Positions 1 to 37,619 of a stretch of 37,619 nucleotides of DNA are shown here, piece after piece. The position numbers were made by a program, and so were the translations under genes. The stretch covers positions 1 through 37,619 of IMG/VR virus record IMGVR_UViG_3300036715_000355, one strand, 5' to 3'. How positions within the stretch are numbered: the stretch's first letter is position 1; every line of letters starts with the position of its first letter. This DNA is from a virus. Below the pieces are notes generated by a model that was not told the origin of the DNA, did not search any database, and saw nothing but the letters and a program-made list of their open reading frames with translations.

Positions 1-127
1 ATTTCGATTTCGTTCTTCACATCGTCAAGCAGGACGAGGACTGGTTTGGTTCGGGCATCCAGGGCCACCAGAGCGGCCTTGAGATATGATTTCGGGTCGT
101 AGACCGTTCCGTCCTCCCCGCCATACC
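1..127. repeat. Terminal direct repeat, left copy (identical to 37493-37619)
   Basis: 127/127 nt identity between the two window ends, checked base by base. A minus-strand ORF reads through the junction. Confidence 0.95.
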
Positions 128-311
128 AGATGGTGCCGGTGGAGATCGTCCTGAAGCCAATCAGGATGCCGGTTCGGTTTTTGGGGAATGGCTTGACCTC
201 CCACACCTTCCACCAGTCAGAGCCGCCCGACTCTCTGATGCGGTGTTCCGACTTCCGGCGAAGCTGGTGAGGGATGATCACCACATCCCCGAATTTCAGA
301 TCATTGGCCAT
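1..311 (-). CDS. Hypothetical early protein; 5' portion of a junction-spanning gene (311->1 continues 37492->37480, 107 aa in total)
   Basis: ATG at 311-309 with GGAGG upstream. The frame is open to the window edge and, through the overlap, ends ...NEIEMPQA-TGA at 37482-37480. Confidence 0.7.
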   Translation of the reverse strand, partial: MANDLKFGDVVIIPHQLRRKSEHRIRESGGSDWWKVWEVKPFPKNRTGILIGFRTISTGTIWYGGEDGTVYDPKSYLKAALVALDARTKPVLVLLDDVKNEIE

Positions 312-963
312 GTGGCCTCCAAGGTTCATGCAGATGGACAAGATCAGGCGGAAAGCGCCTGGACCTCGATGGTTTGGGCGATGGAAAGCAGAAGGTCGCG
401 GAAGGCGTGGGGCGACCTCTGCCGTTGGCGGCTCGACATATTGGCGATGATTCCGCAGCGCCTGGCCGATTCGTAACCGCGCTCCGCCAGGCGCTTGGCC
501 GGTAGGCGTTGTTCACACGGCCCCAGATCAGTTCGGGGGGCTTGGGACCGACCACCAGGAGCCATGTCTTCTTCCTGGCAGGGTGGCCGTAGTGCCCTTG
601 CTCCACTTCACAGGTCCATTCCTGATAGCCGATCTGGAGCCATCCAGTCTTGGGTGGCGTGGGGATCCCGAAGGCAGGCCACGCCTTGGAGTGGGCGGGG
701 TGTTCCAGGATTCCGCCGAAGCGGCGAAGGGAAGCCAGCGCGGCCTTGAAGCATCCGGCATCGTCCCCAGCCTTCTTGGTCTTCAGGGTCATGGAGCCTT
801 CCGCGAACCGGCCCCAGCGTTCACAGGGCGGGTGGGCGACCACGGGGTGAGGGCCTTGGTAGGTCCGTGCGTCCCGGTTGATGTCCCACGGGTCCACGCC
901 GGGAAGGCCGAAGTAGCACCCGTTGGTTTCGACATAGAGAGCGGCGATCAATTCAGGCTCCAA
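301..963 (-). CDS. Cytosine-C5 DNA methyltransferase-like protein (as-assembled ORF; frame probably disrupted near 520-540, authentic stop probably TGA 346-344)
   Basis: AHPPCERW (compare motif IV PPC), ILEHP (compare ENV) and GHPARKKTW (compare QxRxR). No clear FxGxG motif. TTG start at 963 or 951. The last ~65 aa are Arg/Pro/Ser-rich, while the -1 frame gives a plausible C-terminus. Confidence 0.45.
   Translation of the reverse strand: MEPELIAALYVETNGCYFGLPGVDPWDINRDARTYQGPHPVVAHPPCERWGRFAEGSMTLKTKKAGDDAGCFKAALASLRRFGGILEHPAHSKAWPAFGIPTPPKTGWLQIGYQEWTCEVEQGHYGHPARKKTWLLVVGPKPPELIWGRVNNAYRPSAWRSAVTNRPGAAESSPICRAANGRGRPTPSATFCFPSPKPSRSRRFPPDLVHLHEPWRPHGQ
312..346 (-). repeat. Intergenic TGTCCA element, copy a
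   Basis: Minus strand 347-309: CTGATCTTGTCCATCTGCATGAACCTTGGAGGCCACATG. Confidence 0.7.
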
Positions 964-991
964 AGGACCGTGCAGATGGATAGGTGCGCTA
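952..991 (-). repeat. Intergenic TGTCCA element, copy b (TATCCA variant)
   Basis: Minus strand 991-949: TAGCGCACCTATCCATCTGCACGGTCCTTTGGAGCCTGAATTG. Also contains the tandem 9-mer AGCGCACCT x2. Confidence 0.6.
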
Positions 992-1204
992 GGTGCGCTC
1001 GAAATAGGGACAGTGATCTTTTAGCTCTTCGCGTCGGTTGATATGCCCTCCGCTGGGGACAGACGGTCCTCCGATCCAATAAAAGCAGGTCGGCAATGCG
1101 GGCATTTTTATCGAATACCGGCATCGACCATCTCCGCTCGGGTGCATCCTCCCAGTTGCAGTTTTCTGCCAGTCGGCGTGTTTACAGTCGGTGCAGTTCT
1201 TCAC
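989..1204 (-). CDS. Hypothetical small Cys-rich protein (71 aa)
   Basis: GTG at 1204 after a GGGGG SD-like run. CxxC...C...C pattern (VKNCTDCKH...). The longer track ORF would overlap the upstream gene. Confidence 0.5.
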   Translation of the reverse strand: MKNCTDCKHADWQKTATGRMHPSGDGRCRYSIKMPALPTCFYWIGGPSVPSGGHINRREELKDHCPYFERT

Positions 1205-1230
1205 GATGCCCCCGCATCTGGACAAGATCA
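1205..1230 (-). repeat. Intergenic TGTCCA element, short copy c
   Basis: Minus strand: TGATCTTGTCCAGATGCGGGGGCATC followed by GTG. The upstream stop TGA lies inside CTGATCTTGTCCA. Confidence 0.55.
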
Positions 1231-1476
1231 GTTGAAGAGTTCGGGGTTGGTGAGGTCGTGGTTCACCATGGCGTCGAAGATCCGCATAGCCATGGATCGG
1301 AGTTGAATGTGCCCCCAACACTGGATGCAGATTCCGGGGTGGTCTGGTTCCTGCTCACAGAGGTCCCATCCGGTGCCATCCATTTCCCATGGACCCGTGA
1401 CGAACCAGCGCCCATCCATGGCGGCGATGCTGGTGTCATTGGCGACAGCCTGAGCCTGCTTGCGGGTGAATGCCAT
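1228..1476 (-). CDS. Hypothetical protein (82 aa)
   Basis: ATG at 1476 with GAGGTAAG SD inside the end of the upstream gene. Tight spacing within the operon. Confidence 0.6.
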   Translation of the reverse strand: MAFTRKQAQAVANDTSIAAMDGRWFVTGPWEMDGTGWDLCEQEPDHPGICIQCWGHIQLRSMAMRIFDAMVNHDLTNPELFN

Positions 1477-1478
1477 GG

Positions 1479-1778
1479 CTACTTACCTCGGGTGGAATGG
1501 ATAAGGGCGATGCCAAGAGTGCTCACTTCGGATTCTTCAGGGCGCGGGTGAAGGTTGGGATAGGCGCGGTGCCTGAACTCAGTCAGTTGCTCGGGGGTCA
1601 TCACCTCGCAGGCGATCTCTAGTTCCCGGCTCTGGTCATCGAAGGCTTGTCCTAGTTTCTCGATGCTCTCGTTCTCGCGGCGGGCGGCGTCGATGACGGG
1701 TTGCCAGTAGGAGGCGCGGACGCCTCGGCAAAGCTCAGCTTCAACTTCGTTAATGAGTCTGAAAACCTGAGTGCTCAT
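1479..1778 (-). CDS. Hypothetical protein (99 aa)
   Basis: ATG at 1778 preceded by GGAG (TTGTCCAGGAGTCCTATG). The track ORF extends further upstream across the preceding stop and motif. Confidence 0.6.
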   Translation of the reverse strand: MSTQVFRLINEVEAELCRGVRASYWQPVIDAARRENESIEKLGQAFDDQSRELEIACEVMTPEQLTEFRHRAYPNLHPRPEESEVSTLGIALIHSTRGK

Positions 1779-1798
1779 AGGACTCCTGGACAAGATCA
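1779..1798 (-). repeat. Intergenic TGTCCA element, minimal copy d
   Basis: Minus strand: TGATCTTGTCCAGGAGTCCT then ATG. The upstream stop TGA (1798-1796) is embedded in the element. Confidence 0.55.
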
Positions 1799-2056
1799 GT
1801 GGATGGGGCGGTGCTTGCCGCAGGTGCCTCGGTAGCCTTCGGGCGTGGGTGTCCCGCAGGACCACCAATCCCAGCACCCCGGCTCATCGCAGCAGGTTTT
1901 GACGCTACTGACATCCTTGCAACCGGGGCACCCGGTCAGTTCATCGTCAGGGTCGAATGGGTTGGGGGCATGGAGCAGTTCGGTGTCTTCGCCCTTCCAC
2001 CCGCAGTTGGAGTTCTCGCATTTCACTTTCACGGTCGGGCTCCCGGACAGGCTCAT
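1796..2056 (-). CDS. Hypothetical Cys-rich protein (86 aa; alternative GTG start at 2032)
   Basis: About 10 Cys (CENSNCGW...CPGCKD...CCDEPGC). ATGA overlap with the upstream gene. TGAGCCTGTCCGGGAG at the 5' end resembles the intergenic element, so the start may be GTG 2032. Confidence 0.6.
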   Translation of the reverse strand: MSLSGSPTVKVKCENSNCGWKGEDTELLHAPNPFDPDDELTGCPGCKDVSSVKTCCDEPGCWDWWSCGTPTPEGYRGTCGKHRPIH

Positions 2057-2262
2057 CCCTGCTGGATGGGTAGATGGATGGTATCGATGAAGGCTTCGCC
2101 GAAGAGTTCATCCTCCTGGGCGGCATCGAGTTCGTTTTCAGCCTCGGTTACATCAAATAGCCGCACCCAGAGCGATCCACCGGCATAGGGGACTTCGGTG
2201 TATCCAACGCCATTCTCTGGCTTTGTCTCGGCGGCGTAGATGGCAAGAATTTCATTCGACAT
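2053..2262 (-). CDS. Hypothetical acidic protein (69 aa)
   Basis: ATG at 2262 with AAGGAA SD, preceded by element copy e. Confidence 0.6.
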   Translation of the reverse strand: MSNEILAIYAAETKPENGVGYTEVPYAGGSLWVRLFDVTEAENELDAAQEDELFGEAFIDTIHLPIQQG

Positions 2263-2299
2263 GGCAGTTCCTTCCAAGGTTCATGCGAGTGGACAGTTA
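2263..2299 (-). repeat. Intergenic TGTCCA element, copy e
   Basis: Minus strand 2299-2260: TAACTGTCCACTCGCATGAACCTTGGAAGGAACTGCCATG. Confidence 0.7.
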
Positions 2300-2488
2300 C
2301 GGTTTCGGTGCGTATTCGATGAAGAACGGGCAGAAGAACGGCGGGGCTGTGGGGCTCAGGTCAGCAAAGCTGAGGGGTCTAAGTCCCATGCCATCGTCTG
2401 CCTCGCAATCCATGAACCGGGCGCAGGTATCGCGCTTGCCACAGGTCGTTCCGATGCACCGGGAAACATCGCGGGGAAGCTGGCTCAT
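2297..2488 (-). CDS. Hypothetical Cys-rich protein (63 aa)
   Basis: ATG at 2488 in ATGA overlap with the upstream stop. RCIGTTCGKRDTCARF... pattern. Confidence 0.55.
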   Translation of the reverse strand: MSQLPRDVSRCIGTTCGKRDTCARFMDCEADDGMGLRPLSFADLSPTAPPFFCPFFIEYAPKP

Positions 2489-2715
2489 GCCTCCCTCGCC
2501 GCCAGTTCCTTGCAATACTCGATCAGTTCGTCCTGCATCCGTTTCCCGTTGTCGCCAAGGGCAAACCTGATGCGAGATAGCAAGTCGAAGGCGCTGGCGT
2601 TGTCGCGCTGCGCCTGCTCCACCTCCTGCCGGATGGAATCCAGGGCGGGACGCCACACGGTTTCGGGAGCATCACAAGTGAGCAGGCATTGTTCAAGGAT
2701 CGGAAGGTCAGTCAT
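2485..2715 (-). CDS. Hypothetical protein (76 aa)
   Basis: ATG at 2715. ORF taken from the track. Coupled to the downstream gene by an ATGA overlap. Confidence 0.6.
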   Translation of the reverse strand: MTDLPILEQCLLTCDAPETVWRPALDSIRQEVEQAQRDNASAFDLLSRIRFALGDNGKRMQDELIEYCKELAAREA

Positions 2716-2811
2716 GTGGGGTGCCTTTGGACAGGATTTCAGTTGTTAAGGATTTCTGAATAACTGAACCGTAAAGGGATTCTTGACGGTTCGGATTCTG
2801 GACATTCGTTA
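2716..2811 (-). promoter_or_regulatory. Largest intergenic gap of the leftward operon: two TGTCCA cores plus a 7-bp-stem hairpin (2766-2792)
   Basis: tggaca at 2728-2733 and 2799-2804 on the plus strand. Inverted repeat gaaccgt-N13-acggttc. No T-run follows it. Confidence 0.35.
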
Positions 2812-3027
2812 GCGAGTGGTCCCGACAGCCGGGACACCCGCAGGGATTTCGATTTCAGTTGTAGGGCACCAGTGGGTGACAAAGGGCTCGGTGTAATTCC
2901 CAGTGCCGTTGAGGGTGTTCCCATAGGCGGTGATGATCTCGGTTCCGATGATCGGGTTAGCCTGGATAGCCATCACACGCTGACCTGGGGCTGGCTTTGA
3001 TTTCTTCAAGTCTCGCCATGGGAGCAT
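2809..3027 (-). CDS. Hypothetical protein (72 aa)
   Basis: ATG at 3027 with AAAGGAA SD, preceded by element copy h. Confidence 0.6.
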   Translation of the reverse strand: MLPWRDLKKSKPAPGQRVMAIQANPIIGTEIITAYGNTLNGTGNYTEPFVTHWCPTTEIEIPAGVPAVGTTR

Positions 3028-3066
3028 CGGAATTCCTTTCGAGGGTCGTGCATCTGGGCAGCCTCA
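3028..3066 (-). repeat. Intergenic TGTCCA element, copy h (TGCCCA variant)
   Basis: Minus strand 3066-3025: TGAGGCTGCCCAGATGCACGACCCTCGAAAGGAATTCCGATG. Confidence 0.65.
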
Positions 3067-3246
3067 CTCGGCTGCGGCTTCGGGTTCGTCATAGCCCCAA
3101 GAGATTTCCTGGAGCATGGCATCGCGCATGTAGTTCTCGCGTTCATCGGGTGCCATTTCGTCCCAGTCCTCTTGGTCGATTTCGACGGTGAATTTCTTCT
3201 TGCTGTGGATGTTGGCTCCACTGTCTACATAGGCTTGGATCTTCAC
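3064..3246 (-). CDS. Hypothetical acidic protein (60 aa)
   Basis: GTG at 3246 with GAGGTGA SD. ORF taken from the track. Confidence 0.5.
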   Translation of the reverse strand: MKIQAYVDSGANIHSKKKFTVEIDQEDWDEMAPDERENYMRDAMLQEISWGYDEPEAAAE

Positions 3247-3277
3247 GGTTCACCTCATGGGATATTGGACAGGCTCA
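3247..3277 (-). repeat. Intergenic TGTCCA element, copy f
   Basis: Minus strand: CCCAGGCGTGAGCCTGTCCAATATCCCATGAGGTGAACC then GTG. CCCAGGCGTGAGCCTG is shared with copy m. Confidence 0.55.
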
Positions 3278-3538
3278 CGCCTGGGTGTCTTTCAGTTCGC
3301 AATCACACATGATCGAAAAATCAGGGTTGTCCTCACGGGTGACAGGGCGCTCGTTGGTCATGGTTGCCACCTGAGACACCAAACCCCAGCAGATAGAGGT
3401 GGCGTATTCACTCCACCCTTCGTCCCCGGCGGTTTCCTGCTCGGACTCCAGCGCCTTTGCTGCGTGGTCCCTTGCTGCATCGGCGTTGTCGTGGAATTGG
3501 AAATCACCCATTCCGTCATAGCTAAAAAACAATCCCAT
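3275..3538 (-). CDS. Hypothetical protein (87 aa)
   Basis: ATG at 3538 with AAGGAA SD, preceded by element copy g. Confidence 0.6.
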   Translation of the reverse strand: MGLFFSYDGMGDFQFHDNADAARDHAAKALESEQETAGDEGWSEYATSICWGLVSQVATMTNERPVTREDNPDFSIMCDCELKDTQA

Positions 3539-3575
3539 GGCGTGTTCCTTCCAAGGTTCATGCGAGTGGACATCA
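3539..3575 (-). repeat. Intergenic TGTCCA element, copy g
   Basis: Minus strand 3575-3536: TGATGTCCACTCGCATGAACCTTGGAAGGAACACGCCATG. Nearly identical to copy e. Confidence 0.7.
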
Positions 3576-3830
3576 GCGTTTCGGGACGGTGGAGTGCCCA
3601 CCGCATTGCCCCATGGCAGACTCGAAAGCGATCACAGCATCCTCTGGGGTGCTGCCGAACCCGGCGACTCCAGAGGCAAGGTCATCGCCCCAAAGCAGGC
3701 ACCAGAGGTTTCCATCGCGCTTTGGCTTCAGCCCCAGCACGACAGCCCAGTGATCCCGCTTCTCGGCTGCGGCATGATCCAGGCGGGCGGTGGCATACAT
3801 TTCTTGCTGCACATGAAATGGGACTTCCAT
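3573..3830 (-). CDS. Hypothetical protein (85 aa)
   Basis: ATG at 3830 with AAAGGA SD (GAAAGGACCACCATG). MEVPFHVQQ... Confidence 0.55.
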   Translation of the reverse strand: MEVPFHVQQEMYATARLDHAAAEKRDHWAVVLGLKPKRDGNLWCLLWGDDLASGVAGFGSTPEDAVIAFESAMGQCGGHSTVPKR

Positions 3831-3901
3831 GGTGGTCCTTTCTGGGCAATAGTGCGTTGTTGTTGGTTCTGATGGTTCCGGTATGCCAATAGGGTCAGAC
3901 A

Positions 3902-4090
3902 CTAAACAACGATGTTGGTCGTGTTCAATTTGCGCCCGGCAAGCTCACGGATGGCCTTACGATGTTCTTTCGACGGGGTGTGTTCATTCTTGAGCCAGCG
4001 GAATATGGTTGATCTATGGACTTCCAACTTGGAGGCCAGTTTGTTCACACCGTATCTTTTGACCCAAGCGGCGAATTTGGCATCGGCCAT
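3902..4090 (-). CDS. Cro/YdaS-like helix-turn-helix regulator, first gene of the leftward operon
   Basis: 62 aa. HTH segment VNKLASKLEVHRSTIFRWLKN. GGGAGG SD. Faces the divergent control region. Confidence 0.7.
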   Translation of the reverse strand: MADAKFAAWVKRYGVNKLASKLEVHRSTIFRWLKNEHTPSKEHRKAIRELAGRKLNTTNIVV

Positions 4091-4236
4091 TTGTTACCTC
4101 CCGAGACAAACGTAACGCAACATCGCCAGTCGCGCAAGGGGCAACTTTGAACAAAAAAAAAGGTTGCGCGAGCCGCGACATGATGTATCCTTAATTATCA
4201 ACCAACCGGGCCATCCCGGAATGCCGAGGAGCTACA
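4091..4236. promoter_or_regulatory. Divergent early control region (candidate back-to-back promoters and operator half-sites)
   Basis: Only sizeable gap between divergent operons. GCGCAA (4132-4137) faces TTGCGC (4164-4169). Related ACGCAAC at 4115-4121. A9 run at 4153-4161. Possible TTGCGC-16-TATCCT rightward and TTGCGC-17-TACGTT leftward. Confidence 0.4.
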
Positions 4237-4584
4237 ATGTTGAACCCCACCCCCCAACACCGCATGGACCTGATCGTGGGCTATGCGGCCATCCTCATGG
4301 ACATCTGCCGGACCAACCGGGACAAGCCCAATCTGCTGGCCTACGAGATGCTGACGCTGGTATCTGCGGACATTACCCAGCAGACTGACCGGCTTCTCCA
4401 GGACCACGACGATGCCAGGTTCCAGGCCATGTGGGGCCACCGTGGGACCGTGGGTTGTGCCTGGGATAAGATCGTGGACTCTGCTTTCGATGAGGGCTTT
4501 GACGACCTGAACCCCGCCGAAGACGCAGCGTTTGATGCGATCGAAGCTGCCCATCCCACTACATTCAACCCGAAGGGGCTGTGA
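4237..4584 (+). CDS. Hypothetical protein (115 aa), first rightward gene
   Basis: ATG with GAGGAG SD. ORF taken from the track. Confidence 0.65.
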   Translation: MLNPTPQHRMDLIVGYAAILMDICRTNRDKPNLLAYEMLTLVSADITQQTDRLLQDHDDARFQAMWGHRGTVGCAWDKIVDSAFDEGFDDLNPAEDAAFDAIEAAHPTTFNPKGL

Positions 4585-4820
4585 TGGCTAACGGCCCATC
4601 ACGTTCTGAGATAGCAGAACACGCTACTTCTGACGCATTCGAGACCGAAACAGACCCAGTGTTCACCTGCGACACTTGCGGAGAAGAGTTCGAGCCGTGG
4701 CCGGATTCATACTGTGGCCGCACGTTCATCGAGAAAGACAACTGCCAGAAGTGCCTTGAACCCATTGAACCTGACCCTATGGGCGGTTGGAACGAAGACA
4801 TTGGAAGGGATGACCGATGA
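4584..4820 (+). CDS. Hypothetical acidic CxxC protein (78 aa)
   Basis: ATG at 4584 in a TGATG overlap. CDTCGEE...CQKC. Confidence 0.6.
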   Translation: MANGPSRSEIAEHATSDAFETETDPVFTCDTCGEEFEPWPDSYCGRTFIEKDNCQKCLEPIEPDPMGGWNEDIGRDDR

Positions 4821-4996
4821 ACGACCAAGAATTGTTCAACTATGTTGTTGAGTTGGAGCAGAACCGTCTGGAATATGGCCGATTCATCCAGCAGATAGCC
4901 GAAGCCCTTGGGGTGCCAGAGGTATTCGGTGGTGGATACGAAGAAGACGCAATCCTGCTAGCAATCAAAACCCTCAAGGAGAAAGCCAATGGCTAA
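4817..4996 (+). CDS. Hypothetical protein (59 aa)
   Basis: ATGA overlap at 4817. Not in the track because it is under 60 aa. Translation MNDQELFNYVVELEQNRLEYGRF... Confidence 0.5.
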   Translation: MNDQELFNYVVELEQNRLEYGRFIQQIAEALGVPEVFGGGYEEDAILLAIKTLKEKANG

Positions 4997-5726
4997 CCCG
5001 GTAAACACGATCCAAACCCTTGACCCAGATGTGATTGGGAACTTGGTCATCAATGGCGACCTCAAGCGGCTGTCGGCCCCACAGAAGATCGCATTCTATA
5101 CCTACAAGTGCCAGCAGGCAGGGCTTGACCCGGCTGCAAAGCCTTTCGATCTTCTGACCCTCAATGGCAAGGAAATACTCTATGCCAACGCTGGATGCAC
5201 TCAGCAGCTCACAGCCAACCGGAAACTGAGCCACCAAATTACCAACCGTGAATTGGTGGATGGGATCTACTGCGTTTTCTGCAAGGTGACTGATGCCGAG
5301 GGCCGATCCACTGAGAACATGGGCGCTGTGACCGTGGAAGGGCTCAAGGGCGAGAACAAGGCCAACGCCATGCTCAAGGCCACCACGAAGGCTATTCGTC
5401 GCTCTGTGCTGGCTCACTGTGGCCTGGGCGTCATGGATGAGCAGGAAGTGGAAACCATCCCAGGTGCCAAGACTGAGGTATGGACTGCGCACGAGAATGC
5501 TGTTGAGTGGAGCGAAGAAGAATATGCAGAGGCCAAGGGGATCGTGCTGGCCTTCGGTGACTACCTCGACAAGAAGGGCATGGAGTTTGATGAGATTGAA
5601 ACCACCCTCCAGCCCCCCCGGTCCACCATTGGGGATGAGCGCGGCCTGGACAATTGGAAGAACCGATTCCAGGAATACACCAAGCGGGTGGCTAAAAAGC
5701 ATGGTTTCACTGATGAGGTGAAGTAA
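4989..5726 (+). CDS. Single-strand annealing protein, RecT/Red-beta superfamily-like
   Basis: CQQAGLDPAAKPF and NAMLKATTKAIRRSVLAHCGLGVMDEQE resemble RecT/Bet core motifs as I recall them. Confidence 0.55.
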   Translation: MANPVNTIQTLDPDVIGNLVINGDLKRLSAPQKIAFYTYKCQQAGLDPAAKPFDLLTLNGKEILYANAGCTQQLTANRKLSHQITNRELVDGIYCVFCKVTDAEGRSTENMGAVTVEGLKGENKANAMLKATTKAIRRSVLAHCGLGVMDEQEVETIPGAKTEVWTAHENAVEWSEEEYAEAKGIVLAFGDYLDKKGMEFDEIETTLQPPRSTIGDERGLDNWKNRFQEYTKRVAKKHGFTDEVK

Positions 5727-6901: not shown

Positions 6902-7588
6902 ATGAAACTCACAACCCTTAAACCTTGCGAAGATGCGGCCATTTGGCTTGCAACTCAACCAGACCCAGAAACGGCGTGGAATACTTGTCACCGTTCAGAC
7001 TGGATGATCTGGCTTCTTAAAACCATCATATACGACGACCCCAAAGCATACCGACTGTTTGCCTGCTGGTGTGTCCGTAATACTCCATTGGCCGATGGCC
7101 GCAAGGTTTGGGATCTACTGACCGATCCGCGCAGTAAAAACGCTGTAGAAGTAGCGGAACGATTCGCAGTTGGTGAAGCCACAGAACAAGAGCGGGCTGC
7201 TGCGGCTGCTGCGGCGGGGGCTGCTGCGGATGCTGCGGCGGGGGCTGCGGATGCTGCGGGGGATGCTGCGGGGGCTGCTGCGGATGCTGCGTGGGCTGCT
7301 GCGGGGGCTGATGCGGATGCTGCGTGGGCTGCTGCGGCGGGGGATGCGGATGCTGCGTGGGCTGCTGCGTGGGCTGCTGCGGGGGGGGCTGCGGCTGCTG
7401 CGGCGGCGGCTACGGCGGCTGCTGCGGCGGGGGATGCGGATGCTGCGGGGGCTGCTGCGGATGCTGCTGCGGCTGCTGCGGCTGCTGCGGTGTGGAATGC
7501 TGCTGCGGGGGATGCTCAAACCAATAAGCTACGTGATATGATCCCATTCTCTGCGTTCTCACATTTACTTGGTAACGGCTATGAGTAA
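6902..7588 (+). CDS. Protein with an alpha-helical N-terminal domain and a long Ala/Asp/Trp-rich repeat tract
   Basis: N-terminus has TAWNTCHRSDWMIWLL...FACWCVR...AERFAVGEATEQE, followed by ~105 aa of A-rich repeats (AADAAWAAA...). GGAG SD. Confidence 0.6.
   Translation: MKLTTLKPCEDAAIWLATQPDPETAWNTCHRSDWMIWLLKTIIYDDPKAYRLFACWCVRNTPLADGRKVWDLLTDPRSKNAVEVAERFAVGEATEQERAAAAAAAGAAADAAAGAADAAGDAAGAAADAAWAAAGADADAAWAAAAGDADAAWAAAWAAAGGAAAAAAAATAAAAAGDADAAGAAADAAAAAAAAAVWNAAAGDAQTNKLRDMIPFSAFSHLLGNGYE
7196..7514. repeat. Degenerate short tandem repeat (gctgctgcgg / gatgctgcg units), in frame within the 6902-7588 CDS
   Basis: Seen directly. It leaves all six frames open, which explains several track ORFs here. 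Confidence 0.9.
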
Positions 7589-7895: not shown

Positions 7896-10118
7896 ATGGA
7901 CTATTCGCAGTTCCTAGACGGGAAGGCGATCCGCGCCATTCCTACAGGCATCCCAGCGCCAGGGCCAGTGCCTCCCATGTTATTCCCATTCCAGGCCGAT
8001 ATCGCCCGATGGGCGATCAAGCGTGGCCGTGCCGCCATCTTCGCAGACTGTGGGATGGGCAAGACACCGATGCAGCTTGCATGGGCTAATCAGATCCCAG
8101 GCAAGGTGCTAATTCTGGCTCCGCTTGCCGTAGCCCAGCAGACAGTGCGTGAAGGTAAGAAGTTCGGGACTGATCTGACCTATTCACGGTCTGCGTGTGA
8201 CGCACGGATCACCATCACTAATTACGAGATGCTGGACCACTTCAATGCTCATGACTACACTGGCATCGTCCTGGATGAGTCCAGCATCCTGAAGTCCTAC
8301 GATGGCAAGTTCCGTCAGCAGATCATTGAGTCGTTCAAAGACACGCCATTCAAACTGGCCTGCACCGCTACACCTGCCCCAAACGACCACATGGAGCTTG
8401 GGAACCATGCTGAGTTCCTGGGTGTTCTGACCCGCACCGAGATGCTTTCGACCTTCTTTGTGCATGACGGTGGCGACACGGCCAAGTGGCGCATCAAGGG
8501 CCATGCTGAGGATGACTTCTGGAAGTGGCTGGCTTCATGGGCTGTGATGATCCGCAAGCCTTCGGACCTTGGCTATGAGGATGGCAACTTCATCATTCCA
8601 GAACTGATCATGCACCCTCACATCGTGCAGGCTGAACACACCCCAGAGGGGCTTTTGTTCGCTCTGGAAGCCACCACACTCCAGGAACGCCAGCAGGCCC
8701 GCAAGATCACCACGCCGGAGCGTGTGGCCCGTGTTGCGGAGATTGTGGCCACGAAGCCCGATGAACCTTGGCTGATCTTCTGCAACCTGAACACTGAATC
8801 TGAATCTGCGGCATCGGCCATTCCCGGCGCTGTGGAGATTACCGGCTCCGATTCCATGGAAGTTAAGGAATCCAGGATGCTCGGGTTCCAGGATGGATCG
8901 CATCGGGTGGTGGTTTCCAAAGCGTCGATCTGTGGATTTGGGATGAATTTCCAACACTGTCCCAATGTGGTTTTTCTCGGCCTCTCCGACTCATACGAGC
9001 AGTTCTACCAGGCGATCCGCAGGTGCTGGCGTTTTGGGCAGACCAAGCCCGTCCACTGCCATGTCGTGACCTCTGACCTTGAGGGCGCTGTGGTTTCCAA
9101 CATCGAACGCAAAGAGGATGATGCCCAGCGCATGGCCGAAGGGATGGTTTCTCACATGCACCAATTCAATGAGCAGGACATTCGCGGCACAGTCCAAACC
9201 CACGACACTTATCGGACCAATCATGCCTCTGGTAAGGGTTGGGATATGCACCTTGGGGATTGCGTTGATGTGGTCAGCCAGATCCCATCTGACTCCATCG
9301 GCTATTCGATATTCTCCCCTCCGTTCGCAAGCCTCTACACCTACTCCGCATCGGACCGGGACATGGGGAACTGCCGGGATGCTGATGCTTTCTATAAGCA
9401 CTTCCGGTTCCTGACGAAAGAACTGCACCGGGTCATGATGCCGGGTCGGAATCTGAGCTTCCATGTGATGAACCTGCCCTTTTCCAAAGAGCGTGATGGG
9501 TTCATTGGCATCCGGGACTTCCGGGGCGATCTGATCCGCATGTTCCAGGATGAGGGATTCATCTTCCATTCTGAGGTTTGCATCTGGAAGGATCCAGTCA
9601 CGGCGATGCAGCGGACCAAGGCTATTGGCCTTCTGCACAAGCAGATCAAAAAGGACTCGACCATCTCTCGCCAGGGCATCCCTGACTACCTTGTGACGAT
9701 GCGGAAGCGCGGGGCCAACCCTGAGCCTGTGACCCACACTGACGAGACGTTCCCAGTCCAGATGTGGCAGAAGTATGCCAGCCCTGTTTGGATGGATATT
9801 AACCCTTCTGACACTCTCCAACGAGAATCTGCTAGGGAAGAGAAGGACGAGCGCCATATCTGCCCTTTACAGCTTCAAGTGATCCAGCGGGGCCTCGATC
9901 TGTGGTCTAACCCAGGCGATCTGGTTCTCTCCCCATTCGGCGGGATCGCTTCTGAGGGTTTCATGGCAGTGAAGATGGGCCGTAGGTTCGTTGGTGCTGA
10001 GTTGAAGGAATCTTACTGGAAGCAGGGGTGCCGGAACCTAAAGGCGGCTGAGACTGCCAACGAGGGCGGGTTATTCGACCACCACGACTCTTGTGTAACC
10101 CTTGACACAGACCACTAA
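7896..10118 (+). CDS. SNF2/DEAD-like helicase fused to an N6-adenine/N4-cytosine DNA methyltransferase (beta-class order)
   Basis: Helicase motifs: CGMGKT, VLDESS, CTATPAPN, QAIRRCWRFGQ. Methyltransferase motifs: SIFSPPF (motif IV) then DLVLSPFGGIASEG (motif I). Confidence 0.85.
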   Translation: MDYSQFLDGKAIRAIPTGIPAPGPVPPMLFPFQADIARWAIKRGRAAIFADCGMGKTPMQLAWANQIPGKVLILAPLAVAQQTVREGKKFGTDLTYSRSACDARITITNYEMLDHFNAHDYTGIVLDESSILKSYDGKFRQQIIESFKDTPFKLACTATPAPNDHMELGNHAEFLGVLTRTEMLSTFFVHDGGDTAKWRIKGHAEDDFWKWLASWAVMIRKPSDLGYEDGNFIIPELIMHPHIVQAEHTPEGLLFALEATTLQERQQARKITTPERVARVAEIVATKPDEPWLIFCNLNTESESAASAIPGAVEITGSDSMEVKESRMLGFQDGSHRVVVSKASICGFGMNFQHCPNVVFLGLSDSYEQFYQAIRRCWRFGQTKPVHCHVVTSDLEGAVVSNIERKEDDAQRMAEGMVSHMHQFNEQDIRGTVQTHDTYRTNHASGKGWDMHLGDCVDVVSQIPSDSIGYSIFSPPFASLYTYSASDRDMGNCRDADAFYKHFRFLTKELHRVMMPGRNLSFHVMNLPFSKERDGFIGIRDFRGDLIRMFQDEGFIFHSEVCIWKDPVTAMQRTKAIGLLHKQIKKDSTISRQGIPDYLVTMRKRGANPEPVTHTDETFPVQMWQKYASPVWMDINPSDTLQRESAREEKDERHICPLQLQVIQRGLDLWSNPGDLVLSPFGGIASEGFMAVKMGRRFVGAELKESYWKQGCRNLKAAETANEGGLFDHHDSCVTLDTDH

Positions 10119-12024: not shown

Positions 12025-12336
12025 ATGAACGACATCAAGGCAACCGAACTAACCATCAACGGCATTACATACGTGCCTAAGGGAACCGAAACGTCGGCCA
12101 CCCTCGGCCCCTGCCGAATTATCGTTGCGGATCGTGGCTGGGTATTCGTCGGTAACTGCGAAGATCATGCCGATGGGACCATAACTATCTCGAATGCTCG
12201 TAATATCCGACTTTGGGGGACCACCAAGGGGCTTGGTGAACTGTCGGAAGGCCCCTTGTCTGGCACCAAATACGACAAATACGGAACCGTCCGTTGCCTA
12301 CCCATCGTCCAGATCAGCGTTAATTCGGGGTGGTAA
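12025..12336 (+). CDS. Conserved-looking hypothetical protein (103 aa)
   Basis: GGAGA SD. ORF taken from the track. RIIVADRGWVFVG...IRLWGTTKGLGEL. Confidence 0.6.
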   Translation: MNDIKATELTINGITYVPKGTETSATLGPCRIIVADRGWVFVGNCEDHADGTITISNARNIRLWGTTKGLGELSEGPLSGTKYDKYGTVRCLPIVQISVNSGW

Positions 12337-12337
12337 A

Positions 12338-12571
12338 ATGAAAGCCCTACTGATGGGGAATAACGGCTACGGCGACGGCTACGGCGACGGCTACGGCTAC
12401 GTAGACGGCGACGGCGACGGCGACGGCTACGGCTACGGCTACGGCGACGGCTACGGCGACGGCTACGGCTACGGCGACGGCTACGGCTACGTAGACGGCT
12501 ACGGCGACGGCGACGGCTACGGCTACGGCTACGGCGACGGCTACGGCGACGGCTACGGCGGCGGCTTATGA
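12338..12571 (+). CDS. Gly/Tyr/Asp repeat protein (77 aa, (GYGD)n)
   Basis: ATG at 12338 directly after the TAA of the upstream gene. MKALLMGNNGYGDGYGDGYGYVDGDGDGDGYGYGYGDGYG... ATGA coupling to the next gene. Confidence 0.55.
   Translation: MKALLMGNNGYGDGYGDGYGYVDGDGDGDGYGYGYGDGYGDGYGYGDGYGYVDGYGDGDGYGYGYGDGYGDGYGGGL
12365..12563. repeat. Tandem repeat of ggctac/ggcgac hexamers (12-mer ggctacggcgac), in frame
   Basis: Seen directly. There is a higher-order duplication, with ggctacgtagacggc occurring twice. Confidence 0.9.
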
Positions 12572-34325: not shown

Positions 34326-36371
34326 GTGTCAGCACCCATCGCAGTCCCAACTACTTCCAGCATCTTCCAATACCCGCCCAACTTCCCAAACGGTCAGACC
34401 GCTGATATCTGGAATGCGTATTTCCAGAGCATCAACGATGGGTTTTCAACCGCACCAGGGATCTTGGGTGCGGTAGCCTACACGATCCTAGCGGATACGG
34501 TCAGTGCCTCTAATGGGGCTGGGTTGGTTGGTTACAATGCCGCGCTAACATACGGTGTAGGGACCATCGGGAAGGCGGTCAAGGACAACGCAGCCACCGC
34601 TTCTGCGGCCACATCGTTAGTGCGGACCGACCTAGCCGATACCACAGACGTAGCTAAGGGCGATGCGCTGGTGGGGGTGAAGCAGCTGTTCACGGGGGCT
34701 GTGGCACGGACCCAGCATGACAAAAACGCTGACATCGTTAGTCTCAAGGACTTCGGGGCAGTCGGGAATGGGATTGCCGACGATACGGCGGCCATGACTG
34801 CGGCCATTGCTGCGGGTGAGTTCCTGGTCCCAGATGGAACCTATCTGGTCAGCACGGTGACTGTTAACAATAGTGTCAGGATGTATGGGACTGGTCGGAA
34901 TAAGGCGATCATCAAACAGAAGAACGCTACAAACAACAACCTGTTCCAAGTCAACGGTGACTACGCTTTTGAGGCTTATGACATCCAGTTTGACGGCAAC
35001 GGTGCCAACCAGTCGTTGAAGTCTGGTCTCCAGGATGGTATCTCCATCCCTGTTGGGTCACTCACTCTTGAGCGGTGCTGGCTTCACGACTTCAAGGGCA
35101 ATATAGTCAGATCTGGTAACACTGAGTCGAGCTTCGGCTATGCCTCCGACATCAATACCTACGCACATGACTTCCGCATTGTAGGTAATAAGTTCGATCA
35201 GGGGGCCATTGGCCTTGGCTATGGTGATTGCCTACGATTGTTCAAGGTCCAGCGTGGCGAGATCAGCGGTAACTACTTGGTGGGTGGGCTTTCTCCCATG
35301 CGTGGTTGCTACTACTGCTCAGGTTTGAATATTGCAAACAATCGGTCATACAACACAAATGACGTTGGTATCACACTCGCGTTATCTTTCGATTGCACGG
35401 TGGTTGGTAATGTCTGCAACGGCCATAGTCATCACGGGATAGAGATCGATTCCTGCGTCAGGGTTACCTGTGCTGGGAACACTACCAGTGGGAACACTCT
35501 GCACGGAATAGCCATGACTGAGTTTGGCCCTCCAGTGGGTGCTGGTTACTCGGGTTATCTAGACGGTGTTCTGGTGTCCAACCCCACAACGCCTGCAAAT
35601 GTGGATTGTGTGTTCACAGGCAACAACGTCAGCAAGAACGGAACTGGGGGCATGAGCCTTCTGTCTTGTGACGGTGTGCTTGTATCCGGTAATAGGTTCA
35701 GCGGGAACAACACCAGCAACACAGGTGGAGAAGGGTGCGGGATCTACCTCTCTGGAGGAGCCGCAAACAAAGACAACGCAATGATCCAGGCCAATGTTTT
35801 CAACAACACTGGCTACCAAACCAACTCGGTCAACCGTTCCAACCAGCAGATCAGCTACCAGACCAGGATGCAGGGCAACTCCCACATCGGAGGCAACCTT
35901 CAGAATGCCAGCATTCCCCTTGTCGGCGGGTTCAACATGATGACCGACAGGTTCCTGCTGAACTCGGCTTCCATCTCTGGGACATCAGCTCTTGTGGCAG
36001 ACGCACAGAGCAAGACCGGGTGGGCGCGACAGATTGCTGACGCGAGTGGGGCTAGTTCAACGGTGGTGAACTACATCGTCAACCCAGTGTCACGATATGG
36101 TGCCAAACTACTCTACTTCCGGGTTAGAACACCGGACACCATGACCAGCATCACGGTGGATGTGAATCTGTATCTTGCCGGGGTGTATGTCGCCACCGCT
36201 TCGACCATTCCCATGACACTTACTACCGCATGGAGTGAGCAGGTGATTTACTTACCAGCCTCTCTCTCCAGTAATAACTACGATAACATCCACATCCAGT
36301 TCACAACCAGTTCGGCCCTAACGGGAAACGTCAATGTGGAAGAGATCTCCTGCTTCTTGCCGTGTGAGTAG
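34326..36371 (+). CDS. Tailspike with right-handed beta-helix (pectate-lyase-3-like) depolymerase domain
   Basis: GTG start with GGAG SD. VSLKDFGAVGNGIADDTAAMTAAIAAG signature. Repeated G-N-x motifs typical of a parallel beta-helix. Confidence 0.75.
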   Translation: MSAPIAVPTTSSIFQYPPNFPNGQTADIWNAYFQSINDGFSTAPGILGAVAYTILADTVSASNGAGLVGYNAALTYGVGTIGKAVKDNAATASAATSLVRTDLADTTDVAKGDALVGVKQLFTGAVARTQHDKNADIVSLKDFGAVGNGIADDTAAMTAAIAAGEFLVPDGTYLVSTVTVNNSVRMYGTGRNKAIIKQKNATNNNLFQVNGDYAFEAYDIQFDGNGANQSLKSGLQDGISIPVGSLTLERCWLHDFKGNIVRSGNTESSFGYASDINTYAHDFRIVGNKFDQGAIGLGYGDCLRLFKVQRGEISGNYLVGGLSPMRGCYYCSGLNIANNRSYNTNDVGITLALSFDCTVVGNVCNGHSHHGIEIDSCVRVTCAGNTTSGNTLHGIAMTEFGPPVGAGYSGYLDGVLVSNPTTPANVDCVFTGNNVSKNGTGGMSLLSCDGVLVSGNRFSGNNTSNTGGEGCGIYLSGGAANKDNAMIQANVFNNTGYQTNSVNRSNQQISYQTRMQGNSHIGGNLQNASIPLVGGFNMMTDRFLLNSASISGTSALVADAQSKTGWARQIADASGASSTVVNYIVNPVSRYGAKLLYFRVRTPDTMTSITVDVNLYLAGVYVATASTIPMTLTTAWSEQVIYLPASLSSNNYDNIHIQFTTSSALTGNVNVEEISCFLPCE

Positions 36372-36403
36372 CGCCTTGTGCAGCGGTTGTGCAGGTTCAC
36401 CGT

Positions 36404-36446
36404 GGCGCGGGATGGGCGGGAAGGTTCCCGCGAGTGGACAAGATCA
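36404..36446 (-). repeat. Orphan TGTCCA element at the 3' end of the leftward operon (no downstream gene)
   Basis: Minus strand 36446-36404: TGATCTTGTCCACTCGCGGGAACCTTCCCGCCCATCCCGCGCC. Confidence 0.6.
36416..36431. terminator. GC-rich hairpin between convergent operons (candidate bidirectional terminator, no T-run)
   Basis: gcgggaa-gg-ttcccgc perfect 7-bp arms, located between the tailspike stop (36371) and the last leftward gene (36444). Confidence 0.3.
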
Positions 36447-36695
36447 ATCTGTGTATATCTCGGTGATGCTGAATTTCCAGATCCCAGGCTCTATCTCTTT
36501 GAACAAGGTGAAATATGGTCGGAAGCATTCTCCGAACTCTTTCGCCTGTTTATCGAGGATCGGTCTGTTTCCACCTCGGCTTTTTTGCAGAGCGTCCCTA
36601 GCTTCTTGTTCTGTTGCTGCCTTGACCGTTCCGGCATAGATCGAATCGCCGTAGGGTCGCAACTGTCCTACTTGTGTGAAGGTGATATTTCCCAT
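36444..36695 (-). CDS. Hypothetical protein (83 aa), last gene of the leftward operon
   Basis: ATG at 36695 with AAGGAG SD, preceded by element copy k. Confidence 0.6.
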   Translation of the reverse strand: MGNITFTQVGQLRPYGDSIYAGTVKAATEQEARDALQKSRGGNRPILDKQAKEFGECFRPYFTLFKEIEPGIWKFSITEIYTD

Positions 36696-36739
36696 GGGGT
36701 TCTCCTTTCGAGGGTCGTGCAGATGGACAAGAGGGCTCA
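36696..36739 (-). repeat. Intergenic TGTCCA element, copy k
   Basis: Minus strand 36739-36693: TGAGCCCTCTTGTCCATCTGCACGACCCTCGAAAGGAGAACCCCATG. Confidence 0.7.
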
Positions 36740-36937
36740 GAAGCCCAGGAACTCGGGGATCGCGTCGAATTGGCGCGGGGTCATCCAGACGGATTCGACC
36801 TGATAGGCGCCCTTTTCGTCGGCGTCCTCGATCATGTCGCAGGCATCAAGGGGAGTGCAGAAGCAGGAACCGGAGCCCTTCACAGAGAGCTTGATGTATT
36901 CGCGCTTGATGAATCGGGCTTTCAGCCATTCGAGCAT
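36737..36937 (-). CDS. Hypothetical protein (66 aa)
   Basis: ATG at 36937 with GAGGTG SD, preceded by element copy l. The track ORF is longer because it reads through the element. Confidence 0.55.
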   Translation of the reverse strand: MLEWLKARFIKREYIKLSVKGSGSCFCTPLDACDMIEDADEKGAYQVESVWMTPRQFDAIPEFLGF

Positions 36938-36974
36938 TGGGCACCTCGGAAGGTTCGGGGAGTGGACAAGATCA
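36938..36974 (-). repeat. Intergenic TGTCCA element, copy l
   Basis: Minus strand 36974-36935: TGATCTTGTCCACTCCCCGAACCTTCCGAGGTGCCCAATG. Confidence 0.7.
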
Positions 36975-37175
36975 GTTGAGATAGATTCGGGCGATTCGGG
37001 CTTCCTCTGAGTCGCGCAGGTTAGCGACCAGTTCCAGCCCTTCCTTGTAGCGCAGGCACTTGGCGGCAAGGCGTTGGTGTTCGGCATCTAGGATGCGGAG
37101 TTGGTCGGCGCACTCACACACCGGGTCCACGGGGCTGACTACATCCCTCCCGCAGATGTGGCAGATGTTATTCAT
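36972..37175 (-). CDS. Hypothetical CxxC...CxC protein (67 aa)
   Basis: ATG at 37175 in ATGA overlap with the upstream stop. MNNICHICGRD...VCEC. Confidence 0.55.
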   Translation of the reverse strand: MNNICHICGRDVVSPVDPVCECADQLRILDAEHQRLAAKCLRYKEGLELVANLRDSEEARIARIYLN

Positions 37176-37444
37176 ACAGATTCGACTTTGATGCCGACGA
37201 TTCGGGAGAGGGCTTGCAGGAGGTCGCCGCCGTAGCAGTTCCCCGACCCGTAGCCGCAATCAATCGCCCCGTGGGAATCGGCGCTGGCAATCTCGTTGCC
37301 CTCGTCCTGGTCATCGTCCAGGTCGGCGGGGTCGGTCTTGTAGAGGGTCCAGTCATCGTTATCCACGATGGCGTGGCATCCAGGGTTGGCTTTGATGACC
37401 TCAGCCAGTTCAGCGATGGGGTCACGCTCGGGTTTCTTTGCCAT
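37172..37444 (-). CDS. Hypothetical acidic protein (90 aa)
   Basis: ATG at 37444 with AAGGAG SD, preceded by element copy m. Confidence 0.6.
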   Translation of the reverse strand: MAKKPERDPIAELAEVIKANPGCHAIVDNDDWTLYKTDPADLDDDQDEGNEIASADSHGAIDCGYGSGNCYGGDLLQALSRIVGIKVESV

Positions 37445-37482
37445 TGGAGGCTCCTTGAGGGTCGTGCAGATGGGCAGGCTCA
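37445..37482 (-). repeat. Intergenic TGTCCA element, copy m (TGCCCA variant)
   Basis: Minus strand 37482-37442: TGAGCCTGCCCATCTGCACGACCCTCAAGGAGCCTCCAATG. Confidence 0.65.
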
Positions 37483-37619
37483 CGCCTGGGGCATTTCGAT
37501 TTCGTTCTTCACATCGTCAAGCAGGACGAGGACTGGTTTGGTTCGGGCATCCAGGGCCACCAGAGCGGCCTTGAGATATGATTTCGGGTCGTAGACCGTT
37601 CCGTCCTCCCCGCCATACC
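37480..37619 (-). CDS. 3' portion of the junction-spanning gene (same gene as 1-311; 37493-37619 duplicates 1-127)
   Basis: The frame continues from the overlap into ATG-CCC-CAG-GCG-TGA, ending at 37480. Confidence 0.7.
   Translation of the reverse strand, partial: YGGEDGTVYDPKSYLKAALVALDARTKPVLVLLDDVKNEIEMPQA
37493..37619. repeat. Terminal direct repeat, right copy (identical to 1-127)
   Basis: 127/127 nt identity with the left end. Confidence 0.95.

Follow-up and report, generated by a model that had tools for sequence, protein, structure and literature searches.

Phage early regions are the main reservoir of unidentified host-takeover and anti-defence genes, and their fast turnover is understood in only a few model systems, such as the promoter-early stem-loops (PeSLs) of T4. 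These T4-type elements combine a strong sigma-70-like promoter with a terminator stem-loop (PMC2839356; PMC4122927). They are short conserved motifs lying among small, non-essential, hypervariable early open reading frames (ORFs), and differences between phages map to recombination at the motif. Here a short linker built around the hexamer TGTCCA is described from the virus record IMGVR_UViG_3300036715_000355 (IMG/VR; 37,619 nucleotides, hereafter the window), where it separates the small genes of a leftward early operon. The linker likewise lies among small variable ORFs, with phage-to-phage differences located at the motif. Unlike the PeSLs it has no promoter-like site, in a scan that also missed the operon's own promoter, and usually no stem-loop: a real GC hairpin occurs in about 10 of the 42 long linkers, and the hairpin of the terminal copy, the only one scanned for a U-tract, has none. 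The linker consists instead of a hexamer tag and a Shine-Dalgarno (SD) sequence within a single operon. By analogy, it appears to work most like the T4 PeSLs, as a recombination joint among early ORFans.

In appearance the linker is most like the SAS and ESAS motifs of Cluster K phages, being an oriented motif that adjoins the SD. The Cluster K motif is a fixed 13-mer, GGGATAGGAGCCC, typically placed 3–7 bp from the start codon (PMC3203893). Both motifs are asymmetric and occur in one orientation, only among non-structural genes; both overlap the stop codon of the gene upstream, include the SD or lie next to it, and are preserved ahead of genes from different families. However, the consensus of the linker is unrelated to GGGATAGGAGCCC apart from the SD, its hexamer lies 8–49 nt from the start codon or abuts it and 0–8 nt from the upstream stop codon, and terminal copies without a gene recur in linker arrays. 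A third comparison is with the stoperators of Cluster A phages (L5 gp71, Bxb1 gp69), which are 13 bp long, distributed genome-wide, served by a proven repressor and different between heteroimmune phages (PMC3029335). The linker resembles these sites in its many asymmetric copies in short intergenic gaps, all oriented with transcription, and G-N4-TGTCCA is similar to the L5 core TGTCAA, which also has a G five bases before it. Unlike stoperators, the linkers are found in one operon only and keep the same hexamer across very different phages. Beside the first gene of the window operon there is only a TGTCTC, which matches the hexamer at four of six positions, and L001 (L plus a number labels a related locus fetched for comparison) has two hexamers flanking a TAGAAT.

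Integron attC sites are 55–141 bp long and contain imperfect inverted repeats (RYYYAAC ... GTTRRRY), with the tyrosine recombinase IntI encoded beside the array. The linker arrays share with integrons the promoter-less small ORFs in one orientation behind an upstream promoter, the extremely diverse cassette pool, the conserved site after every cassette including the last, and ORF ends that run into the site. The linkers are however only 18–41 nt long, lack R''/L''-L'/R' repeats and a GTTRRRY core, and mostly lack any inverted repeat. Pfam or PHROG searches covered most window ORFs (about 50, all but a few of the late region) and gave no Phage_integrase match, and the integrase of L105 is of the ordinary phage type and follows an xis-like gene. 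Exchange is better explained by homologous recombination than by an integron route. In the modular theory of Susskind and Botstein, and in Clark et al. of 2001, boundary or linker sequences of lambdoid phages were reportedly proposed as crossover points. Such sequences are short, conserved and located at gene boundaries of the early region, and the window phage has lambda-like replication and nin-region genes; but they are few and loosely defined, whereas the linker is one defined tag found at nearly every junction in dozens of genomes. It provides a natural example on which the long-standing 'linker sequence' model of modular evolution in phages could be tested. Among early-mRNA-specific sites between cistrons, the RNase III sites of the T7 early region are long hairpins and the T4 RegB target GGAG is the SD itself; the linker shares their position, but it is not hairpin-based as a rule and is not the SD. 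The linker is a member of none of the T4 PeSL, SAS, stoperator or integron attC classes.

The reading put forward here is that the element is a modular intercistronic linker, which supplies a ribosome binding site (RBS) and also acts as the recombination joint of a cassette array; the case for it is about evenly balanced. By analogy with the lambda PL operon, the array would sit in a PL-like early-left operon.

Structure and occurrence of the linker

The anatomy of the linker was obtained from 130 non-redundant junction copies, taken from the window and 23 related locus strands and aligned on the hexamer. The parts follow in the order upstream stop codon in a 5' segment with G at −5, TGTCCA, optional spacer, SD and start codon, and the spacer is either absent, a G-poor unstructured stretch of about 16 nt or a GC hairpin. 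Between the end of the upstream stop codon and the hexamer lie 0–8 nt, with maxima at 0, 1, 3 and 4 nt, and a G occupies −5 in 100 of the 130 copies. Which stop codon is used varies with this distance, with TGA in 39 of 44 copies at 3 nt and TAG in 14 of 20 at 4 nt while a distance of 2 nt is nearly absent, indicating that the G at −5 is kept. It is also present in 30 of the 37 copies in which the stop codon does not cover −5 (distances 0 and 1), although these copies represent only about four sub-families and carry less statistical weight than the count suggests. The distance from hexamer to start codon is 8–16 nt in a short form, with a sharp mode at 12 nt (26 copies), or 23–32 nt in a long form, with a tail extending to 49 nt.

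Most long spacers are poor in G, and as a group they show less structure than their shuffled counterparts (median z +0.48). The hexamer itself lies inside a stem, GTCCAGG-N5-6-CCTGGAC, in L028, L032, L074 and L079, where the loops differ, and stems one base shorter also contain it in L082 and L020. Predicted accessibility of the hexamer was 0.443, compared to 0.448 in control windows. The accessibility and structure tests gave no support for an RNA-level single-strand signal, and an SD-sequestering or other conserved RNA fold was rejected on the same two results. Rfam gave no match to the whole window at the gathering threshold and none to 36300–37619 even at E ≤ 1, and no trans-encoded antisense RNA was found in the window.

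Bases 1–127 of the window are identical to 37493–37619, forming an exact 127-bp terminal direct repeat; the genome is circular, 37,492 bp long and opened in the window inside g14 of the leftward operon. This operon contains 18 small genes (g1–g18) on the minus strand. Its proximal part (1–4090, g1 to the 5' part of g14) runs downward from the ATG at 4090 through coordinate 1, and its distal part (36444–37492, 3' end of g14 to g18) re-enters at 37492 and continues to the stop codon at 36446–36444, where g18 converges on a pectate-lyase-type tailspike gene (34326–36371, plus strand). The duplicate at 37493–37619 marks the closure of the circular assembly. The copies assigned by the original prediction to a right arm of the genome thus belong, as distal junctions, to the operon that also holds the left-arm copies, and their apparent separation was an artefact of linearisation. 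All four copies that it quoted do lie on the minus strand at 37482–37442, 36974–36935, 36739–36693 and 36446–36404, and 36200–37619 reads exactly as quoted.

About 16 linker copies are present in this one operon. An exact TGTCCA was found at 10 of the 15 non-overlapping internal junctions and at the operon end, a one-mismatch core at four further junctions (TGCCCA twice, TATCCA and TGTCCG) and TGTCTG at one more, so that the only junctions without a core are one 2-nt gap and two ATGA overlaps. The long-form pattern TGTCCAYYYGCAYGAMCCT, with up to three mismatches allowed, gave eight matches in the window, all eight on the minus strand and all eight at gene junctions, compared to an average of 0.16 in dinucleotide shuffles. 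No junction copies were found elsewhere in the genome, including the plus-strand late genes.

Outside the window, the exact short-form 21-mer TGTCCATCTGGAGGAACCATG was retrieved from 33 IMG/VR stretches (about 0.03 expected by chance, own estimate) and a degenerate 19-mer pattern of the long form from 22 (about 14 expected by chance, own estimate). The long form is present in more than 10 IMG/VR contigs, and contigs bearing the element number roughly 45. Many of the retrieved stretches hold multiple copies on one strand. An exact 19-mer of the element was absent from 185,579 species-representative genomes, the element was not found in GenBank phages, and a literature search with its sequence returned only unrelated primer matches; the linker is undescribed in the collections and literature searched. 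The lineage consists of uncultivated phages with P22-like structural and lambda-like replication genes. The closest cultured portal proteins have about 33% identity to that of the window, for which no prophage relative was found. The linker is a searchable tag that marks array joints in dozens of uncultivated P22-like/lambdoid genomes.

Cassettes, mosaic joints and array ends

The 130 linker-preceded ORFs from 22 element-bearing loci, with a median length of 67 amino acids (aa), fell into 108 families of which 92 were singletons. As this small sample illustrates, the tag offers a way of collecting cassette ORFans from metagenomic data by sequence. Clear homologues in 95 fetched loci were limited to four of the 18 operon proteins of the window (g6, g7, g9 and g13), and g11 gave one weak match of 38% among these loci. 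The linkers, by comparison, are conserved in relatives despite unrelated flanking ORFs, and nucleotide homology between arrays begins or ends at the hexamer to the base. In blastn comparisons the block shared with L070 extends over window positions 2055–1787, from a stop TGA to the final A of the TGTCCA that follows; with L072 and L092 the match (2715–2290) ends at a hexamer, and with L065 it begins exactly at 2733, the T of a hexamer. When all arrays were compared with each other, the 5' ends of all 20 homology blocks fell between −6 and +28 relative to a hexamer, 13 of them between −6 and 0. At the junction upstream of g13 the hexamer is kept in six phages in which the spacers differ. The suggestions that mosaic breakpoints coincide with the element and that it serves as a cassette boundary were both supported by these comparisons, and in relatives a homologue of g18 is likewise followed by TGTCCA and then by other genes. 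The position of the linkers beside hypervariable ORFans, together with the start and stop of homology at the hexamer, points to the linkers as joints of cassette exchange; a tag found between almost all small early genes in otherwise unrelated relatives would mark cassette joints and not RBSs alone.

Unrelated ORFs also have last codons in common along with the element, ending in ..QA* (CAGGCG plus stop), ..PKP*, ..PKR* or ..PE*. An example had been noted originally as the string CCCAGGCGTGAGCCTG(T/C)CCA, said to join the 3' ends of two unrelated ORFs to the element. The string is present at 37491–37471 (the 3' end of g14 plus core, CCCAGGCGTGAGCCTGCCCA) and at 3286–3266, the two ORFs (...MPQA* and ...DTQA*) are indeed unrelated, and the recurrence of the ..QA*, ..PKP* and ..PKR* tails agrees with the duplication of ORF 3' ends together with the element. 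The same string could fold as CAGGC-GTGA-GCCTG, with the stop codon in the GTGA loop.

The terminal copy of the window (36404–36446, minus strand) lies in the 72-nt gap between the stop codons of g18 and the tailspike gene. The TGA of g18 (36446–36444) is followed by TGTCCA at 36440–36435 and a hairpin at 36431–36416, with arms GCGGGAA (36431–36425) and TTCCCGC (36422–36416), and by neither SD nor start codon. This copy was described as an orphan with no gene behind it, which holds on closer inspection since the only ORF there (40 aa, GTG 36400..36278) has no SD, runs antisense to the tailspike 3' end, has no homologue and is not credible. The accompanying statement that the hairpin replaces the SD is accurate for the 3' arm, which occupies the SD position when aligned with the junctions at 3572 and 2295; the hairpin itself, however, is a normal linker subtype. 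Its 26-nt sequence TGTCCACTCGCGGGAACCTTCCCGCC is identical at an internal junction of L087 and one base shorter in L065, and in both cases an SD and start codon follow 10–20 nt later. What distinguishes the window copy is thus the lack of an SD and gene rather than the presence of a hairpin.

A homologue of g18 with 89% aa identity is found on other contigs with a tRNA-Gly gene upstream in place of g17. This tRNA-Gly gene lies inside the array at 169–246 of L098, and its 3' end is also visible in L097 and L099. The stop codon of the homologue is followed by TAAggcTGTCCA, after which L097 has a long spacer and a 366-aa gene, and L098 and L099 have a short linker and a 50-aa gene. Beyond the g18 stop codon only the hexamer is common to these contigs, so that the window orphan corresponds to a junction without a downstream cassette, and the copy at 36446–36404 is a hairpin-type linker left at the array end minus that cassette. 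Two independent assemblies from two other samples (L100 and L101) are identical to the window across the orphan. Copies without a nearby SD and start codon were found in six lineages (the window, L008, L009, L015, L021 and L102). Those of L015 and L102 are at clear operon ends and those of L008, L009 and L021 are more than 150 nt from the next start codon. In L001, L012 and L102 a hexamer also stands ahead of a first gene, following a T-run or a gap that resembles a promoter. In L003 (4404–4500, minus strand) the array ends in a linker plus a 12-codon stump that abuts the tailspike stop codon and is homologous to the 5' end of a cassette in L065, L019 and L033; the stump looks like a truncation scar at the tailspike/array boundary. 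The terminal copies favour a function beyond ribosome binding, and they could also be relics.

Related arrays differ in how the slot between stop and start codon is filled. At the end of the TGTCCA array of L105 (3364–4559), a 64-aa xis-like gene and a Phage_integrase gene overlap, which indicates that at least some phages of the lineage are temperate; the array itself stands where lambda has its PL accessory genes. L102 contains a compact array (2180–5320) with gaps of 5–13 nt, in which the SD lies in the 3' end of the upstream ORF and the order is GGAG, stop, TGTCC and ATG, placing the hexamer downstream of the SD and abutting the ATG. The L102 motif could alternatively be an NTG-TCC-ATG start giving Met-Ser-Met N-termini. 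The last gene of this array is followed by TGA-TGTCTA with no gene behind it. In sister phages, which have a g13 homologue of 60–83% identity and no TGTCCA, the same slot holds a structured junction element of about 58–100 nt (L023 3135–5590; L024 7860–11100; L026 8914–9980; L054 6160–12230). The element runs from CCTAACG, which holds the stop codon, through CTAACCGG, a GC hairpin with compensatory variants and TTGAGCG to GGTTAGGC, and has no Rfam family match; CCTAAC and GTTAGG look like a closing stem. A more distant array, L106 444–2950, has GCGCAG or GCGCA between stop codon and SD at 8 of 10 junctions, and in L031, L032, L074 and L079 some linkers have GCGCAG after TGTCCAG. Judging from these sequences, other clades place other tags in the same slot.

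Possible functions of the conserved tag

If the linkers are recombination joints, cassettes would be exchanged by relaxed homologous recombination between the 20–45-nt linkers of co-infecting or resident relatives, and the NinB/Orf, VRR-NUC and YbcO-type recombination functions encoded by the window may be cited beside such a process. An incoming ORF would land in register with its own SD and be expressed from the resident early promoter, the spacer type might tune the expression of neighbouring cistrons, and the hexamer with its G at −5 would act as a clade-specific tag, serving for compatibility or as the target of a trans-acting factor. The hexamer is probably not read directly by the ribosome, as its variable geometry argues against direct contact. 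Several points weigh against a role in exchange. Recombination at the linkers would be deduced from the pattern of sequences alone, and any conserved intergenic signal attracts crossovers, so the joints do not prove that exchange drives the conservation. The invariance of the hexamer where spacers diverge implies direct selection on 6 nt, a length too short for homologous recombination on its own, and in L102 the whole gap can shrink to 5 nt (TGA-TGTCC-ATG). The 20 block ends are not independent, many of them involving g13; the terminal copies were located by a hexamer search, which introduces an ascertainment bias, and the L065 array ends without one. No conserved candidate for a trans factor was found, the helix-turn-helix (HTH) protein of the first gene being rejected for this role as it has no close relative in IMG/VR. 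Assembly chimeras could in principle contribute to metagenomic mosaics; for the window an assembly switch at a linker is unlikely since the 127-bp overlap far exceeds any linker.

The retention of a 6-nt tag even in 5-nt gaps raises the question of its reader. One possible but unlikely answer is that G-N4-TGTCCA is the recognition or crossover site of an integron-like, integrase-free system, in which a trans factor of phage or host would mobilise or co-regulate the early ORFans across the lineage, probably host-takeover or anti-defence genes, and the other tags (GCGCAG, CCTAACG...GGTTAGGC) would define separate compatibility groups. Should there be a dedicated factor of this type, the arrays would represent a gene-cassette system of a new kind. 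Another answer that we consider doubtful is a stoperator-like roadblock, with a monomeric phage or host protein bound to G-N4-TGTCCA blocking elongation and silencing the early-left operon. The site is asymmetric, intergenic, present in many copies of a single orientation and overlaps stop codons, all features of the L5/Bxb1 sites (PMC3029335), and a roadblock would explain copies at both array edges and near promoters (the pair in L001 and the window TGTCTC before the first ATG) in a group of which L105, at least, is temperate. The L5 consensus GGTGGMTGTCAAG also resembles G-N4-TGTCCA, probably by coincidence. However, neither integrase nor repressor was detected among the window ORFs searched, the sites occupy one operon only and not both arms as in L5, the first-gene HTH protein is not conserved, and the same hexamer serves very different gene sets where immunity sites usually diversify; six to seven informative positions are also little for a stand-alone operator. 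The confinement of the tag to the sense strand of the early operon and strictly to the stop-to-start interval, even in 5-nt gaps, would equally suit an RNA processing or shut-off tag, a UGUCCA at which the early polycistronic mRNA is cut by a sequence-specific endoribonuclease so that cistrons are separated or inactivated. Targets of such nucleases are typically of this 6-nt size, the strongly structured elements of the sister clade (about 58 nt) occupy the slot in which RNase III-type sites would be expected, and trimming of transcript ends would account for the copies ahead of the first cistron and behind the last. Against this, the hexamer is no more accessible than in controls and is buried in a stem in about 10 linkers, its depletion within array coding sequence was not significant (7 non-junction copies in 27 kb compared to 5.6 expected, most of the 7 being junctions missed by the ORF filter), and neither a nuclease candidate nor an Rfam family was found, making a processing tag improbable.

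A decidedly unlikely reading is that the element is only an extended, SAS-like RBS, with the hexamer a translational enhancer or standby site, the terminal copies decaying relics and the mosaic joints incidental. It would account for the strong SD and start codon after almost every copy, for the short-form peak at 12 nt, a distance at which the TGTCTC of the first gene also stands from its ATG, and for the weak structure of the G-poor long spacers, and L003 demonstrates that array ends can be truncation scars. It does not fit the lack of fixed geometry between hexamer and start codon, which extends in L102 to a hexamer downstream of the SD, nor the way in which the hexamer tracks the upstream stop codon with a G at −5 within the stop region, nor the recurrence of terminal copies in six lineages; complementarity to 16S rRNA beyond the SD was not convincing, judged against E. 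coli rrsH only, which may not match that of the host. The original prediction also raised transcription termination at the terminal hairpin (36431–36416), which is very unlikely as the end of the leftward operon. The predicted 6-bp GC stem with a 4-nt loop is suitably placed between convergent genes and has compensatory variants in L065 (GCGGGA/TCCCGC) and L031 (GCCGG/CCGGC), but CCCAUCCCGCG stands where a U-tract would be expected, a scan returned no terminator-like site, shuffled sequences fold equally well (z −0.23) and the same hairpin variant is internal, with genes after it, in L087 and L065. The possibility that each element is a promoter for the gene behind it, T4 PeSL-like or read by a phage RNA polymerase, can be almost entirely discounted. 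A conserved sequence of 19–29 nt does precede many small early genes, but no sigma-70-like site was found in 36250–37619 or 1–4400, by a scan of limited power since it failed on the operon's own promoter, and the alignment contains no conserved −35 region upstream of the hexamer. The short forms leave only 12 nt, including the SD, from hexamer to ATG, so a transcript begun there would lack the conserved SD. A T7-like or other phage promoter was rejected for want of this leader room and of a −35, and because no phage RNA polymerase or sigma factor was detected among the ORFs searched. An antisense promoter was also rejected: read from the other strand, the hexamer gives TGGACA, which is similar to TTGACA, but positions −18 to −23 hold no conserved −10. 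A DnaA box in its high-GC form, TTGTCCACA, was rejected since neither the CA that should follow the hexamer nor the T that should precede it is conserved, and a link to Dcm/CCWGG holds only for the TGTCCAGG subset.

Individual junctions and other features of the window

All junctions described here are on the minus strand. From the proximal end of the operon, the g1/g2 junction (3828–3904) has a gap of 71 nt with the two-mismatch core TGTCTG at 3901–3896 directly after the stop TAG, and the long-form g2/g3 linker (3536–3575) has a TGA followed at once by TGTCCA at 3572–3567. The g3/g4 junction (3266–3286), which holds the second copy of the shared 3'-end-plus-core string, has TGTCCA at 3271–3266. 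The long-form g4/g5 linker (3025–3066) carries the variant TGCCCA at 3060–3055, and the 93-nt g5/g6 junction (2713–2811) contains two cores, at 2804–2799 and 2733–2728, and a hairpin, GAACCGT/ACGGTTC. Further along, the long-form g7/g8 linker (2260–2299) reads TAAc and then TGTCCA at 2295–2290, and the short g8/g9 linker (2030–2055) has the variant TGTCCG at 2049–2044. Two further linkers are of the short form: g9/g10 (1776–1798), with TGAtct, TGTCCA at 1792–1787, GGAG and ATG, and g11/g12 (1202–1230), with TGTCCA at 1224–1219. The next two linkers are of the long form. That of g12/g13 (949–991) has the variant TATCCA at 982–977 ahead of a TTG start codon (951–949), and that of g13/g14 (309–346) has TGTCCA at 340–335.

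Beyond the circular closure the linkers described are again of the long form. The g14/g15 linker (37442–37482) consists of TGA at 37482–37480, the one-mismatch core TGCCCA at 37476–37471 and ATG at 37444–37442, and the 3' end of g14 plus core (37471–37491) is the sequence in common with 3266–3286. In the g16/g17 linker (36935–36974) TGA (36974–36972) is followed by tct, TGTCCA (36968–36963), CTCCCCGAACCTTCC, the SD GAGGTG and ATG (36937–36935), and its 35 bases at 36968–36934 are identical to a linker of L008. The g17/g18 linker (36693–36739) contains TGA (36739–36737), TGTCCA (36729–36724), the spacer TCTGCACGACCCTCGAA, the SD AGGAG and ATG (36695–36693).

Within the operon, g13 (344–951, minus strand) is the sole widely shared cassette, with homologues in 47–49 fetched loci of several clades. 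It has no Pfam match and contains an HPPCERW motif. Many homologues align to residues 1–144 only, and the C-terminal tail of the window protein is of low complexity. The first operon gene encodes the HTH protein, and the TGTCTC matching the hexamer at four of six positions lies exactly 12 nt before its ATG. A divergent control region of 146 nt (4091–4236) separates this gene from a rightward gene of 115 aa. The sigma-70 consensus had no match in this region under the criteria of the scan; by eye, TTGCGC-17-TACGTT lies ahead of TGTCTC-GGGAGG-ATG, and a run of nine T is also present.

Among the other products encoded by the window are a portal and coat of P22 type, a large terminase, an initiator resembling lambda O and a DnaC-like loader, together with NinB (NinB/Orf), VRR-NUC and YbcO-like nucleases and a helicase-methylase fusion. 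The fusion is a 740-aa protein (7896–10118) in which a DEAD/Helicase_C domain is joined to an N6_N4 DNA methylase domain. In the sister phage L054, positions 312–390 gave a sub-threshold Rfam match to the Burkholderia anti-hemB sRNA (30.7 bits compared to a gathering threshold of 49.5; E 0.003), a weak hint that this phage has a betaproteobacterial host. Two coding tandem repeats are present in the window. ACGGCT is repeated about 33 times at 12363–12559 within a small Gly/Tyr-rich ORF (12194–12571), and a GCTGCG-type repeat at 7194–7488 encodes a long Ala-rich tract in a 228-aa ORF (6902–7588). Repeats akin to these two also occur in L031 and L065.

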